Of a DNA stretch of 64,000 nt, positions 2,583 to 37,052 are shown piece after piece; position 1 is the stretch's first letter, and every line of letters starts with the position of its first letter. The position numbers and the translations under genes are program-made. The DNA is from Candidatus Falkowbacteria bacterium RIFCSPLOWO2_12_FULL_45_13. GTDB taxonomy: Bacteria > Patescibacteriota > Patescibacteriia > Patescibacteriales > GWC2-42-12. The DNA lies in assembly GCA_001778055.1 (NCBI GenBank), contig MFFY01000061.1, forward strand, positions 515-64,514. The letters are read 5' to 3'. Below the pieces are notes generated by a model. The model ran no database searches, had not been told where the DNA came from, and was given only the letters and a program-made list of their open reading frames with translations.

Positions 2583-2742
2583 TGCTGTCATTGCGAGGAG
2601 CAAATGTAGCGAAGCGAAACGAGCGAGCGGCAACCTCACGGATGTCTATATTTCACTAAATCTCGCAAAGTTTTATAATGATTATTTTCATCGTTCGTGA
2701 GATTGCTTCGTCGCCTGATTACAGGCTCCTCGCAATGACAAA
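2583..2742. repeat. MITE-like structured repeat, copy A (terminal inverted repeat GTCATTGCGAG / CTCGCAATGAC, internal inverted repeat GCAATCTCACG / CGTGAGATTGC)
   Basis: Shares its termini and an internal AT-rich core (tcactaaatctcg...ttttat.atgattatt...cgttcgtgagattgc) with the copies at 11733-11925 and 33163-33326. Confidence 0.7.
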
Positions 2743-2790
2743 CGATATTGTACGCCACTCACCATGAAAACTCGCATAATGATATAAATT

Positions 2791-4620
2791 TTACCTCTTT
2801 AATAACTTAATAAACGTATCCGATGGAATTTCCACGCTGCCCTTACCGTGAGCCGTCATTTTCTTTTTGCCCTTTTTCTGCTTTTCCAACAATTTGCGTT
2901 TGCGCGTGACGTCGCCGCCGTAAAGCTTGGCCGTAACGTCTTTTTTCATGGCGGAAATTCTCTCGGCCGCGATAATTTTCCCGCCGATAGCCGCCTGCAA
3001 TTTGACCGCGAACATCTGCTTGGGCAAAGTTTCTTTTAAAGTAACCACGACTTCTTTACCGCGCTTAAAGGCTTCATCGCGATAAATTATCATGGCCAGC
3101 GCCTCGATCGCGTCTTCGGCCACCAGGATATCCATTTTTGCCACGTCGGCTTGCCTATAGGCGATAAAATCATAATTAACCGAAGCATAACCAGAGCTGG
3201 CGCTTTTTATTTTATCATAAAAATCCGTCAAAATCGCGACCAAGGGGATTTCATAATGCAAAATCACCCTGGTCTCGTCAATATACTCGGTATTCTTATA
3301 AATACCGCGCTTCTCCTGCACCAAATTCAAAATTGGCCCGATATATTCTTTGGGCGCGATGATATCCAGACTAACCCATGGCTCTTCAATCCTGTCTGTT
3401 TGCGAAGGGTCAGGCAATTTCTGCGGACTGCGGATGATCAGTCCTTCGCCGTTCTTTTTAAAAACCTTGTAGGCGACGCTGGGAACGGTAACGATTAAAT
3501 TTAAATTATATTCTCTTTTCAGGCGCTCTTGAAAAATTTCCAAATGCAATAACCCCAAAAAACCGCATCTGAAGCCAAAACCCAAAGCTTCGGAATTTTC
3601 CGGCTCATAAATTAAAGCGGCATCGTTAAGCTTTAATTTGGCTAGGGCTTCTCTTAATTCCTCAAATTCATTGCCCTCGCGCGGAAAAATTCCGGCAAAA
3701 ACCATTGGCTTTACTTCATCATAGCCTTTTAGCGCTTTGGTGTCATGGCTAAACTTCGTTAGCGCCACTGTGTCGCCCACTCGGGCATAGCTGACGTCTC
3801 TAAAACCGGTAACAATATAGCCAATCTCGCCTGCCTTTAATTCGCCGGTTGACTTATACTCCGGTTTAAACACCCCGGCGTCCAAAGCTTCGCTTTTGGC
3901 CTGGGTGGCAAGCAATACTATTTTATCGCCCTTTTTCACCATGCCGTCGAAGATTCTGACATAAACCACCACGCCGCGGTATTCGTCATAGGTTGAATCA
4001 AAAATCAACGCCCGCAAAGGCCTTTCGTCATAATCTATCCAATCGCCGTTTGATCGAGATTTCGCCATTTTATTATATTTTTCAGCCGGTGCCGGGACGC
4101 GGTCAATTACCGTTTTTAACACTTCAACCACGCCCTGTCCGGTTTTAGCGGAAGCTAAAATAATCTCTTGAGGCTGACAACCTAATAAATGAATAATTTC
4201 TTTTTTTGTTTTTTCTATATTGGCCGCCGGCAAATCAATTTTGTTTATCACCGGAATAACGGCTAAATTCTGCTCTAAGGCTAAGTATAAATTGGCCATG
4301 GTTTGCGCCTGAATGCCCTGGGTCGCGTCCACGAGCATTATGGCGCCCTCAACCGCGGCCAGGCTGCGAGAAACCTCATAGGTAAAATCCACATGTCCCG
4401 GCGTATCAATCAAATTTAGAATGAAGCCCGAGTATTCCATTCTGACCGGCTGCAGCTTAATGGTAATTCCCCTTTCCCGCTCCAGATCCATTTGGTCAAG
4501 CACCTGATTTCTCATTTTTCTTTTCTCAATCGTGCCGGTTATTTCCAGCATGCGGTCAGCCATGGTGGACTTGCCGTGGTCAATATGGGCAATGATGCAA
4601 AAATTTCTTATCTTGGACAT
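2791..4620 (-). CDS. lepA: Elongation factor 4 (LepA)
   Basis: 609 aa. N-terminal GTPase motif IRNFCIIAHIDHGKSTMADRML, the LepA-specific C-terminal domain, and a typical length. Confidence 0.95.
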   Translation of the reverse strand: MSKIRNFCIIAHIDHGKSTMADRMLEITGTIEKRKMRNQVLDQMDLERERGITIKLQPVRMEYSGFILNLIDTPGHVDFTYEVSRSLAAVEGAIMLVDATQGIQAQTMANLYLALEQNLAVIPVINKIDLPAANIEKTKKEIIHLLGCQPQEIILASAKTGQGVVEVLKTVIDRVPAPAEKYNKMAKSRSNGDWIDYDERPLRALIFDSTYDEYRGVVVYVRIFDGMVKKGDKIVLLATQAKSEALDAGVFKPEYKSTGELKAGEIGYIVTGFRDVSYARVGDTVALTKFSHDTKALKGYDEVKPMVFAGIFPREGNEFEELREALAKLKLNDAALIYEPENSEALGFGFRCGFLGLLHLEIFQERLKREYNLNLIVTVPSVAYKVFKKNGEGLIIRSPQKLPDPSQTDRIEEPWVSLDIIAPKEYIGPILNLVQEKRGIYKNTEYIDETRVILHYEIPLVAILTDFYDKIKSASSGYASVNYDFIAYRQADVAKMDILVAEDAIEALAMIIYRDEAFKRGKEVVVTLKETLPKQMFAVKLQAAIGGKIIAAERISAMKKDVTAKLYGGDVTRKRKLLEKQKKGKKKMTAHGKGSVEIPSDTFIKLLKR

Positions 4621-35164: not shown

Positions 35165-35182
35165 AATTGTTTTCCTTTTCTC

Positions 35183-35397
35183 CAGCCCCAGTTTTTATGG
35201 ATAAACGAAAAGCTTAAAACTAATCAACGACGACTCAAACTCAAAATATGGTCAATTTTTCCACGAAAACTGGAGCTGGGTTAGCCTCTACTCCGAATCG
35301 TCCAGACCCAGTTTCCGCGAATAATAATCGAGAACTGTCTGATCGGCAGTTTCCATATATTCAATAATAGCAAATTATTTTTGGAAACTGGGGCTGG
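35183..35397 (-). promoter_or_regulatory. Candidate rpsB 5' leader: five copies of a 13-15 bp motif (GGAAACTGGRGCTGG) in alternating orientation, predicted to form long hairpins
   Basis: Motif copies at about 35183-97 (rc), 35265-80 (+), 35303-17 (rc), 35345-57 (rc, partial) and 35383-97 (+), immediately upstream of the rpsB start. Confidence 0.4.
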
Positions 35398-35709
35398 ACA
35401 AGGAAATTTAATGGAGTATGAGAGATTAATTTAATAAAAATTTATTCCCACCTGCTGGCAAACAAATACCTTTAGCAGGTTATTTTAACCACAAAAATAG
35501 ACTATAATATTATTTAGGGTTTGTCAACCTCAAAAACGAAAATTCCTTAGCCGCTTTGTCTGACGACAGCACCTCAAATTTTCATCCTGTTAACAGGAGT
35601 TTAATTCTCCTAAAAGCCCATCTTGGTATTTTTCGTTACGGGATTTAAAAAAGCCCGACAAACTCCGAATAATCGGCTGTCGAGCTTAGACGGAAAGGGA
35701 GGATTCCTC

Positions 35710-35961
35710 TTATTCTCCCTCTCCTTGCAGGTATTCGTAGGTGTACCCGACAATGGTACTCACTTTCCACCCGTGCCGGGGAGCAAAACGTTTCGGAATA
35801 GGTCTCCCGATGCGTACCGCGATTTGCCCAAAGAGCTGGTCAGCCTCCCCCTTTTTAAGCTCCGTGCTGTCATTGACATTTGTAATGAGCCACCCTCTGG
35901 ACTCTGCCACCATGCTCTGCACGAGCATCCGAATACGTCCTTTCGTAATGGCGTTATTCAT
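35710..35961 (-). CDS. Hypothetical small protein (83 aa)
   Basis: ORF with an AGGAAAG-like ribosome-binding site. Locally elevated GC. No recognisable family. Confidence 0.25.
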   Translation of the reverse strand: MNNAITKGRIRMLVQSMVAESRGWLITNVNDSTELKKGEADQLFGQIAVRIGRPIPKRFAPRHGWKVSTIVGYTYEYLQGEGE

Positions 35962-36096
35962 TTCTTTCCTTTCTCGTTTGTTCTTCGCGCCATTGCGGAG
36001 AAACCTTGATTTAAATGATATGTTTTATTCGTCTTTTTGTCAACATCTTTTTGTCAACTCTTGCCAAAAATAATTTTATATGTTAAGGTAAAATCT

Positions 36097-36624
36097 GACA
36101 AATAAAACAAGGCTTGTGAATTTCATCAAGGAAAATTCGCTTACCGGGCGGTACTGGCGCGAAGCCATGTCATTAAAAGACTATACCTCGTTCAAATTAT
36201 TTTAAGGGAGGTAGACATGCTCCCCATGCTTTCCGGTAAGCGTCGATCTTTTTAAGCTTGGGTCTGGTTTTGGCGGAACGGTAGACGCACGGACATAGTC
36301 CGGTATGCCACAAGTTGGATTTAACGACATGTCAAGCCCGCATAGCTTGTGCCATTGTGGGTTCAACTCCCATAAGCTAGACCAATTTGGGCCAACGGAT
36401 GACTTTCGAATTTACTGCTAGGGGGTAGCGACCATCCCCGGACAAAACGCATAGTCAGATCCGATCTGACTCCCAAGGGTTCATACCCCAAGGGATATGC
36501 GCGGGTAAATCCGATTGTCTATCCGCTGGCCCCTAATTTGTGAGCATTGATTGCCGATCCTCCCGTCCACGCCCTGACAAAGTGGCCGACAGAAAAGGAC
36601 ATGGCAGGCTGACTCAATGCTCAC
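36097..36624 (+). ncRNA. Candidate structured ncRNA region (about 540 bp, no ORFs, GC-rich): an internal tRNA-like T-arm/acceptor ending ...GTGGGTTCAACTCCCATAAGCTAGACCA at 36384, a preceding tRNA-Leu-like D-arm GGCGGAACGGTAGACGC, and a closed 85-nt hairpin domain at 36540-36624. Identity unresolved (tmRNA, RNase P RNA or other)
   Basis: A putative promoter (TTGCCA, 17 nt spacer, TATATG) lies at about 36060-36095. T-loop TTCAACT with 3' ...ACCA. Terminal 11-bp inverted repeat gtgagcattga / tcaatgctcac. I could not pair a canonical 5' acceptor strand by eye. Confidence 0.3.
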
Positions 36625-36761
36625 TTCCTTAATTAAGCTCACAAGCCGTAAAAAAAATTCACCAAAAATTATTTCGCAGTTTCGCGTATTTAATCGTTAC
36701 ATTATTCGCATATTCACGGCATTCGCTGTATTCGCTTTAAATTCGTTATTTATTCGTATTT

Positions 36762-37052
36762 ATGAAAAAAGATATTCATCCAAAATATTACCCCCAGGCT
36801 AAAGTAACCTGCGCCTGCGGCAACGCTTTTATTACCGGCTCAACCCTGCCGGAACTTAAAGTGGAAATCTGTTCCGCTTGCCATCCTTTTTATACCGGCA
36901 AACAAAAACTGATCGACAGCGCCCGCAGGGTAGAAAAATTTCAGGCCAAAGTTGAAGCCAAAAACAAAAATCTGGCCGTGCATAAGAATAAAAAGGCTAA
37001 ACGGGTGGCCAAAACCAAAGCCAAGGCGGCCAAAAAAACCGAAAAAAAGTAA
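36762..37052 (+). CDS. rpmE: 50S ribosomal protein L31 (with Lys-rich C-terminal extension)
   Basis: 96 aa. MKKDIHPKY, CxCG...[10 protein letters not shown] zinc-ribbon pattern. Confidence 0.9.

Follow-up and report, generated by a model that had tools for sequence, protein, structure and literature searches.

Positions 36111 to 36647 of the plus strand, within the 64,000-nucleotide (nt) stretch of DNA analyzed here (the window), form a single structured RNA of about 540 nt that is free of open reading frames (ORFs) and holds four arms inside a 23-bp helix, termed P1. The host, Candidatus Falkowbacteria RIFCSPLOWO2_12_FULL_45_13 (matched to assembly GCA_001778015.1), is a bacterium of the candidate phyla radiation (CPR), and the RNA is placed in the leader of its rpmE-prfA-prmC operon, directly 3′ of the conserved rpmE promoter. 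We favor the reading, at a probability of roughly 0.5, that this is an accessory RNA composed of tRNA-derived modules that is co-transcribed with the operon and probably excised at P1, and we infer that it functions as a tRNA mimic.

The region folds as one large RNA with four arms

The region from 36097 to 36660 was folded in parallel with 100 dinucleotide shuffles. Its minimum free energy (MFE) was −211.7 kcal/mol, compared to −159.8 ± 7.0 kcal/mol for the shuffled sequences (z = −7.46), and none of the 100 shuffles folded as well. These values, together with the plus-strand position 3′ of a promoter, bear out the first-pass annotation, made from the letters alone, which had proposed a structured noncoding RNA at this site. 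The minus strand of the region folds equally well; the G-U pairs of the acceptor stem, the T-stem, and P1, as well as the tRNA motifs described below, are compatible with the plus strand only. The description of the region as ORF-free also held, as nothing longer than 54 amino acids is present and the longest ORFs (42 to 54 amino acids) are all found on the minus strand. GC content is 47 to 51%, compared to 33 to 38% in neighboring intergenic DNA and approximately 40 to 55% in flanking genes; the region is therefore GC-rich, as had been stated, relative to other spacers only and not relative to coding DNA.

In the predicted fold, a central junction gives off four arms whose stems are about 10 bp long (Table 1), and arm 4 adjoins the 3′ strand of P1 with zero linker. 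The 11-nt inverted repeat recorded previously was found again, with gtgagcattga at 36540 to 36550 and tcaatgctcac at 36614 to 36624. Where the annotation had treated a tRNA-like piece and an 85-nt hairpin as possibly separate RNAs, these are two arms of one RNA, and the unit is larger than the one flagged, being closed by the 23-bp P1.

Arm 2 resembles a tRNA that lacks a usable anticodon loop

By its sequence, arm 2 is a module derived from tRNA-Leu that has no usable anticodon loop. A 7-bp acceptor stem, a D-arm, a T-arm, and the conserved tertiary nucleotides U8, A14, G18G19, U54U55C56, and A58 agree with the tRNA cloverleaf (RF00005), whereas a triloop hairpin stands where the anticodon arm, with a 5-bp stem and a 7-nt loop, is expected. 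The anticodon and variable region are replaced by this 3-nt-loop hairpin and a second hairpin of 43 nt. Because the acceptor stem, D-arm, T-arm, and CCA are kept, the tRNA “elbow” would be intact. A 17-mer covering the D-arm (GGCGGAACGGTAGACGC, 36272 to 36288), previously described as tRNA-Leu-like, is identical to positions 9 to 25 of tRNA-Leu genes in 6 of the 10 viral loci checked, and the arm is thus of tRNA-Leu ancestry.

Other elements reported in the first-pass annotation were likewise recovered: the T-arm plus 3′ end GTGGG-TTCAACT-CCCAT-AAGCTAG-A-CCA at 36357 to 36384, the tight hairpin CGGAC-AUA-GUCCG at the position of the anticodon arm (36290 to 36302), and the failure to fold as a standard tRNA, for which both standard ARAGORN and RF00005 were negative. 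A 5′ acceptor strand, which that annotation had not found, is in fact present, as CUGGUUU pairs with AAGCUAG through five Watson-Crick and two G-U pairs (Table 1). With introns allowed (-i), ARAGORN places the tRNA ends exactly at 36264 and 36384. Of the identities offered for the region, that of a tRNA-derived element agrees with the tRNA-Leu-type D-arm and with the T-arm/acceptor/CCA end. The loop of the long hairpin in arm 2 contains AUGUCAA, which resembles an anticodon loop and may be a relic of the module's history.

The GGU leader that precedes the acceptor stem pairs with ACC, so that the stem of arm 2 is extended to 10 bp in the MFE fold and the CCA is sequestered. The same leader (UGGU with GCCA in a tRNA-Gln-like first arm of related RNAs) pairs the discriminator and CC in all five CCA-ended tRNA-like arms, compared to none of three ordinary tRNA genes in the window (tRNA-Leu, tRNA-Pro, and tRNA-Ala), in which CCA is encoded and the leaders are AT-rich and unpaired. 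Pairing between the leader and RCCA is a documented anti-determinant for bacterial RNase P and competes with the GGU of the L15 loop (PMC10731613).

Related RNAs share a frame and vary in their tRNA-like arms

Relatives were collected as prfA homologues at 75 to 83% identity and traced to their contigs; synteny is conserved across these loci. Two relatives hold a large insert between the promoter and rpmE, namely L091 (GCA_964560005.1), with 752 nt at 2706 to 3457, and L092 (GCA_028707005.1), with 604 nt at 2867 to 3470. In nhmmer comparisons, the window RNA matched L092 at E = 5.5e-15 and L091 at E = 4.2e-07. Eight further syntenic relatives (L093, L095 to L099, L232, and L233) are without the RNA and have leaders of 36 to 185 nt, and in the prfA tree carriers and noncarriers intermingle within a single clade. 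The check for conservation and covariation in relatives, which the first-pass annotation had named as a means of refuting it, was thus positive, with homologues in L091 and L092.

The three carriers have in common P1, the junction AAGGAAA...YUCCUU, the linker AAUCGNUCUUUUUAA with its mini-hairpin, the base of arm 2 (UGGGUC...GACCAAU), the CCAAUUUGG junctions, and the base of arm 3 with a T-arm remnant. Positional homology of arm 1 was established via the conserved linker 3′ of the arm. Arm 3 is the positional homologue of a tRNA-Sec-like arm in L091 and L092, with which it aligns, and its T-arm remnant (GCGCGGGUAAAUCC) is degenerate. Arm 4 of L092 has exactly the same closing 10 bp, and both L092 and L091 have a similar A-rich loop. 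A pseudoknot between the U-rich linker and this A-rich loop was checked by hand and rejected, as it is not kept in L091 and the linker mini-hairpin is the simpler structure. The junction CCAAUUUGG was also seen to repeat between arms, in L091 and in the window.

Within the shared frame (P1, linker, and last arm), L091 and L092 hold four to five tRNA-like or CCA-ended hairpin arms. Those of L092 comprise an arm scoring as tRNA-Gln(UUG) (65.7 bits), an arm that scores as a tRNA (52 bits) and whose “anticodon” loop has 5 nt, a long hairpin with ACCA at its end, and a tRNA-Sec-like arm (30 bits, below threshold). In L091, the Gln arm has an orthologue whose anticodon is UCG; this is accompanied by a “Val(AAC)” arm that bears C37 and whose T-loop is defective, by two hairpins with CCA ends, and by a Sec-like arm. 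The first arms (2738 to 2814 in L091 and 2899 to 2975 in L092) are approximately 85% identical and both score as tRNAs; each has a 7-nt loop, U33, and R37, and they differ in carrying a UCG “Arg” anticodon with U1-G72 (L091) versus a UUG “Gln” anticodon with U1-A72 (L092). Either a working tRNA has switched its anticodon here, or constraint on a mimic has been relaxed. ARAGORN -i assigns conflicting anticodons to the orthologous Sec-like arms, Lys in L091 versus Asn in L092, which indicates that such arms are tRNA-shaped and are not conserved decoders. The long hairpin arms at 2834 to 2908 and 3002 to 3068 of L091 and at 3116 to 3200 of L092 terminate in either ...CCGCCG-CCA or ...CUGCC-ACCA. 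These arms, which alternate with the tRNA-like ones, look like acceptor/T minihelix mimics in which the CCA is single-stranded.

Base pairing was then compared between species. Over the 23 pairs of P1 in three species, 87% of cells are paired, compared to 32 to 54% in controls with a slid register, and 4 of the 23 pairs show double compensatory changes. In arm 1, all 25 pairs are kept between L091 and L092 (tRNA-Gln-like), with 3 compensatory changes, and the 30 pairs of the Sec-like arm include 4. Drawn from three sequences only, these counts are suggestive of helices held by compensatory changes.

Promoter, operon, and neighboring sequences

The RNA lies in a spacer between PSP1-tsf-rpsB on the minus strand and rpmE-prfA-prmC on the plus strand, as read from the ORF list and the Pfam labels of the source contig. 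The first-pass annotation had proposed a promoter composed of TTGCCA and TATATG separated by 17 nt. TTGCCA was confirmed as the −35 element; TATATG is only 10 nt away from it, and the box found at 17 nt is TAAGGT (36084 to 36089), preceded by TG, in an arrangement that is kept in relatives. The promoter was not called by a consensus scan because TAAGGT agrees at only three of six positions. Nine of the 11 related loci compared, RNA carriers and noncarriers alike, have the pattern CTTGYYAAA-N-TRTGTTARNNT ahead of rpmE; L232 has no match to the search pattern, yet similar sequence is visible there. Transcription would start near 36096 to 36097.

Between the RNA and the rpmE ATG (36762), a promoter and terminator scan returned no plus-strand promoter and one weak terminator-like site only. 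The interval from 36648 to 36761 contains ATTCG five times (0.12 expected) and TTCG seven times (0.46 expected), spaced by 8 to 24 nt. Such (A)UUCG repeats also precede the rpmE ATG in the L091 and L092 leaders and are not found in the noncarriers L098 and L233. The array may be a protein-binding array tied to the RNA element.

Table 1. Features of the RNA and its leader (window coordinates)
Feature	Position	Strand	Basis or detail
Promoter of the RNA and the rpmE operon	36061..36089	+	−35 TTGCCA 36061-36066; 17-nt spacer; extended −10 TGtTAAGGT 36081-36089
P1, 5′ strand (GGCUUGUGAAUUUCAUCAAGGAA)	36111..36133	+	Pairs with 36625-36647 in MFE fold
Arm 1, 105-nt irregular hairpin with 10-bp basal stem CGCUUACCGG/CCGGUAAGCG	36138..36242	+	MFE fold
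Linker AAUCGNUCUUUUUAA with 3-4 bp mini-hairpin CUU-UUU-AAG	36244..36260	+	Sequence kept in L091 and L092; hairpin in MFE fold
Arm 2, tRNA-like module	36261..36384	+	Sequence motifs, ARAGORN -i, D-arm identity
Arm 2, GGU leader	36261-36263	+	Pairs with ACC 36381-36383
Arm 2, acceptor stem, 7 bp	36264-36270 with 36374-36380	+	CUGGUUU/AAGCUAG; the G-U pairs are G3:U70 and U5:G68
Arm 2, D-arm	36273-36288	+	Within GGCGGAACGGTAGACGC
Arm 2, hairpin with 3-nt loop	36290-36302	+	Sequence
Arm 2, 43-nt hairpin with 8 bp and 27-nt loop	36309-36351	+	Fold
Arm 2, T-arm	36357-36373	+	Loop UUCAACU, G53-C61
Arm 2, A73 and CCA	36381; 36382-36384	+	Sequence
Arm 3, 144-nt branched arm with 11-bp stem GGCCAACGGAU/AUCCGCUGGCC	36389..36532	+	MFE fold; alignment with L091/L092 arms
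Arm 4, 85-nt hairpin closed by GUGAGCAUUGA/UCAAUGCUCAC, with A-rich internal loop ACAGAAAAGGACA	36540..36624	+	Inverted repeat, MFE fold
P1, 3′ strand (UUCCUUAAUUAAGCUCACAAGCC)	36625..36647	+	MFE fold, P1 comparison across three species
Rest of rpmE leader, repeated (A)UUCG motifs	36648..36761	+	Motif count
rpmE (ribosomal protein L31), first gene of rpmE-prfA-prmC	36762..37052	+	ORF list, Pfam labels

Several observations were made on the surrounding sequence. Leaders of rpmE are very short in noncarriers (3598 to 3635 in L095; also L093, L233, and L098), and no evident Shine-Dalgarno sequence precedes rpmE in these genomes. In L095 the rpmE ATG follows the −10 box by 6 nt, suggesting a leaderless mRNA. 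On the minus strand of the window, an ORF of 83 amino acids (35710 to 35961) is without homologues in a set of 5.8 billion proteins, contains no Pfam domain, and is preceded by a sigma-70-like promoter matching at 11 of 12 positions (36043 to 36015). Approximately 700 bp around 35710 to 36043 are missing from the equivalent spacers of L091 and L092, which points to a lineage-specific insertion beside the RNA. The ORF is probably unrelated to the RNA and, being an orphan, was of no use as a guide to relatives.

In the rpsB leader (minus strand, 35165 to 35420), the blocks TTAGCCTCTACTCC, ACAAGGAAA, and GGAGTATGAGAGATT are kept in all relatives. In the window, these blocks are split by two long hairpins made of inverted copies of CCAGMCCCAGTTT, and relatives have other GC-rich hairpins at the same positions. 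No Rfam call was obtained for 35165 to 35420, and the sequence looks like an S2 leader with variable stems.

Searches against known RNA families and other DNA

Known families were searched with Rfam 15 over 35900 to 36800, at the gathering threshold and at E ≤ 10, and with ARAGORN in standard, -i, and relaxed -m modes. No Rfam family matched the region at the gathering threshold, and E ≤ 10 returned three meaningless matches to small nucleolar RNA or small RNA families only, with no RF00005 among them. Neither L31 leader families nor T-box matched at the RNA, and the GOLLD/ROOL core (RF01998 and RF03087) had no match in the window (E ≤ 10) or in L091 and L092 (E ≤ 1). Standard ARAGORN found the three ordinary tRNAs of the window and no tRNA or transfer-messenger RNA (tmRNA) in the RNA region, while the relaxed -m mode gave only implausible permuted tmRNA calls with nontag peptides. 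A permuted two-piece tmRNA was considered and set aside, as no 5′ acceptor strand follows the CCA and the two strands of the acceptor occur in the ordinary order, with the partner upstream.

Two identities offered in the first-pass annotation were thereby removed. The proposal of tmRNA failed on negative ARAGORN and Rfam models and on the lack of a tag frame, P2, and pseudoknots, and RNase P RNA, like the signal recognition particle RNA and 6S RNA, had no Rfam match even at E ≤ 10. The annotation had allowed that a known Rfam family might resolve the identity, and none did.

DNA relatives were sought by comparing the region, in BLASTN and nhmmer, with 80 prfA loci of GTDB species, among which the only matches (99 to 100% identity) came from the window's own population. 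BLASTN found no similar DNA in phage and plasmid collections. A metagenome scan with the 19-mer CAATGCTCACTTCCTTWAT gave 12 matches, all by chance and in unrelated coding DNA. No relatives of the RNA were found in the viral scan, where the D-arm 17-mer matched ordinary tRNA-Leu genes, the T-arm/acceptor motif had one unrelated match, the Sec-like arm motif had none, and the AT-rich P1 motif had more than 120 matches in unrelated viral contigs, taken as chance without inspection. A tRNA-Leu upstream of rpmE in the locus L016 was rejected as an ordinary tRNA in a different context. A literature search returned no publication, within the library searched, linking “tRNA-like” to Patescibacteria or the candidate phyla radiation. 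The RNA matches no described family; in concept it comes closest to GOLLD with embedded tRNAs and to the tRNA mimic of YrlA.

Comparison with known systems

GOLLD sometimes embeds tRNAs in a variable linker region, for which “inhibited storage” has been proposed (PMC12286853, PMC12990946). Like GOLLD and ROOL, the present RNA is large (0.5 to 0.8 kb), multidomain, and ORF-less, and its tRNA-shaped inserts likewise vary within a conserved frame. It differs in being chromosomal, in the ribosomal-protein operon leader of a CPR bacterium, with tsf, rpsB, rpmE, prfA, and prmC as neighbors and no phage tRNA island. Moreover, tRNA-like arms make up most of the molecule and are not an occasional insert, and no conserved pseudoknotted core was recognized in it.

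YrlA (RF02553) contains a tRNA-like domain in a longer helix, and some members are substrates of RNase P and the CCA enzyme (PMC4201824). Both RNAs place an acceptor-like stem, a D-arm, and a T-arm inside a larger molecule with no functional anticodon arm. However, YrlA has no match in the window and reaches 24.3 bits in L092 against a gathering threshold of 69, and GNCGAAN0-1G was not seen in arms 1 and 3 on inspection. Neither rsr/Ro60 nor rtcB is among the genes neighboring the RNA in the window, and no rsr is found among the neighbors in L001, L091, and L092. The present RNA is also five times the size of YrlA, with several tRNA-like arms in its relatives. With the tRNA-like domain of tmRNA, arm 2 shares G3:U70, A73, CCA, a UUCAACU-type T-loop, and the absence of an anticodon; it differs in a full tRNA-Leu D-arm and a C1-G72 pair, in having no P2, pseudoknots, or tag ORF, and in the negative ARAGORN and Rfam results.

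Two further systems provide precedents for the setting. In Escherichia coli, tRNA genes are co-transcribed with translation genes in thrU-tyrU-glyT-thrT-tufB and metY-nusA-infB. There, as here, tRNA-shaped sequences stand between a promoter and translation-factor genes, and RNase III or RNase P would part the RNA from the mRNA. In the window, by contrast, no arm decodes, a 23-bp helix encloses the array, non-tRNA arms are interleaved, and the CCA ends are paired to leaders. Correia elements, which are miniature inverted-repeat transposable elements (MITEs), are co-transcribed, and their hairpins are cut by RNase III. The resemblance to these elements lies in inverted repeats of about 23 bp, clean presence or absence at a TA-containing site, and a co-transcribed hairpin that would be an RNase III substrate. 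The differences are a length of 540 to 750 nt compared to approximately 100 to 150, a single copy, occupation of the same orthologous site in three species, and compensatory ends.

Alternative explanations

An explanation that we consider unlikely is that a small tRNA operon once stood upstream of rpmE and has been decaying since, with the window copy a nonfunctional remnant and its architecture leftover tRNA structure. The element is missing from most relatives, the window copy retains one recognizable tRNA-like arm only, L092 has a good tRNA-Gln(UUG) as arm 1 (65.7 bits), L091 has two tRNA-scoring arms, and other arms have truncated or noncanonical anticodon loops, all of which would be expected of such a cluster. 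Decay accounts poorly, however, for a conserved frame that consists of the non-tRNA parts (P1, arm 4, and the linker), with covariation in P1, or for arm helices preserved via compensatory changes in a region whose fold is much more stable than those of shuffles. All CCA-ended tRNA-like arms, and no ordinary tRNA checked, have the GGU:ACC extension, and the UCG (L091) versus UUG (L092) anticodons of arm 1 speak against a conserved decoding tRNA. An inert spacer of approximately 540 nt would also be unusual for a streamlined CPR genome.

Improbable to a similar degree is an origin of P1 as the 23-bp terminal inverted repeats of a nonautonomous transposon, a MITE possibly of the TA-targeting, IS630/Correia-like type, that landed in the rpmE leader with tRNA-derived cargo. 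Presence and absence are clean, with bounds exactly at the inverted repeat, and carriers occur among noncarriers within a single prfA clade. Two loci, L098 and L233, have the appearance of empty sites: AAATCTATTGAWTA is followed there directly by YAATAA, as if the sequences on either side of the L091 and L092 inserts had been joined, and the junctions contain TA; this TA sits in AT-rich sequence and is not diagnostic of a target-site duplication. Against mobility, the element is single copy within the 64-kb window, no transposase is nearby in the ORF list, and no similar DNA was found in phage and plasmid collections or in the 80 GTDB loci. Its three copies occupy an orthologous site and have interiors diverged beyond BLAST recognition, which fits old vertical descent and loss. 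Compensatory change of both ends is not expected from independent decay of transposon ends, and since long inverted repeats are prone to deletion, hairpin-mediated deletion explains the clean loss equally well.

We regard as quite unlikely a role as a cis-regulatory leader, in which the tRNA-like arms would bind a translation component in cis (e.g., L31, RF1, EF-Tu, or the ribosome) and thereby control rpmE-prfA-prmC. tRNA-like operators do control thrS, and here the RNA is found between the sole detectable promoter and rpmE, the downstream genes all act in translation or its termination, and UUCG repeats run from the RNA to the start codon. But most close relatives have the operon and its promoter without the element, some being apparently leaderless, and the arm set varies greatly among carriers, which is unexpected for a specific operator. 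The length of 540 to 750 nt far exceeds that of known ribosomal-protein leaders, and P1 is clear of the rpmE start region, which begins 115 nt further on.

Finally, it is very improbable that arm 2 is a real tRNA, either the intron-containing tRNA-Asp(GUC) that ARAGORN -i calls, with a 34-nt insert at 31/32, or a minimal tRNA-like domain that RNase P would release and alanyl-tRNA synthetase would charge on account of its G3:U70, A73, and encoded CCA, the major alanine identity elements: the insert matches no known bacterial intron type in position or size, being unlike bacterial group I tRNA introns or archaeal bulge-helix-bulge introns, the proposed anticodon stem has an A-C mismatch, the -i anticodons of orthologous arms are inconsistent, a tmRNA-like reading meets no tmRNA call, tag frame, or pseudoknots, the orthologous L092 arm 2 has G3-C70 and not G-U, the acceptor stem begins with C1-G72, and its CCA is sequestered.

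Proposed function and implications

In the reading that we favor, an accessory RNA that mimics tRNA, the RNA would be co-transcribed with rpmE, as suggested by the absence of a plus-strand promoter and the single weak terminator-like site between the two. P1, with about two turns of double-stranded RNA, may act as an RNase III-type processing stem that frees the RNA from the mRNA. The GGU:ACC extension would keep the tRNA-like arms within the larger RNA or slow their release by RNase P. RNase III cleavage and RNase P resistance are offered as proposals. The RNA would display tRNA elbows and acceptor mimics without decoding, and might act on a tRNA-binding factor as its decoy or its scaffold, or might store tRNA-like pieces. 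Such a role has parallels in the “inhibited storage” proposed for GOLLD-embedded tRNAs (PMC12990946) and in the tRNA-like module of YrlA (PMC4201824).

Four observations weigh against this reading. Covariation statistics for P1 are weak, as 13 to 70 of 500 shuffles reach the observed values. The cloverleaf-type fold of arm 2, at −40.5 kcal/mol, is 7 kcal/mol above the MFE structure (−47.5 kcal/mol), which is not a cloverleaf, so the tRNA shape of this arm rests on motif conservation and not on thermodynamics. In E. coli, numerous bona fide pre-tRNAs with G(−2)U(−1) extensions nevertheless undergo processing (PMC10731613), and the tRNA-like arms could therefore be released. Lastly, with three carriers only and eight syntenic relatives that are without it, the RNA is dispensable.

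More tentatively, we suggest that the RNA may be the first representative of a class of large RNAs in CPR bacteria that has not been described before, though we hold this broader proposal to be doubtful. In such a class, tRNA-derived arms with sequestered CCA ends would form a “bouquet” borne by a conserved helical frame; the intact RNA would act as a multivalent tRNA mimic that sequesters or scaffolds tRNA-binding enzymes or ribosomal sites, or as a store for regulated release, and would constitute a chromosomal counterpart of phage GOLLD with embedded tRNAs.

Mimicry of tRNA by noncoding RNAs is a recurring and poorly understood theme that includes tmRNA, YrlA, viral tRNA-like structures, mascRNA, and GOLLD-embedded tRNAs. 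The architecture described here is unusual and occurs in a streamlined CPR genome; three members are known, they are dispensable, and their function is the part that we infer. As CPR genomes are minimal, an idle structured RNA of 0.5 to 0.75 kb is unlikely. If the RNA were a decaying tRNA cluster or a MITE, it would be an ordinary curiosity. If the favored reading is true, a cellular RNA built almost wholly of tRNA-derived arms, with RNase P anti-determinants of its own, would bear on the existence of “ornate” large RNAs with embedded tRNAs outside phages, and would provide a tractable system for the exaptation of tRNA genes into new RNAs and for how processing enzymes are kept off tRNA-shaped substrates.

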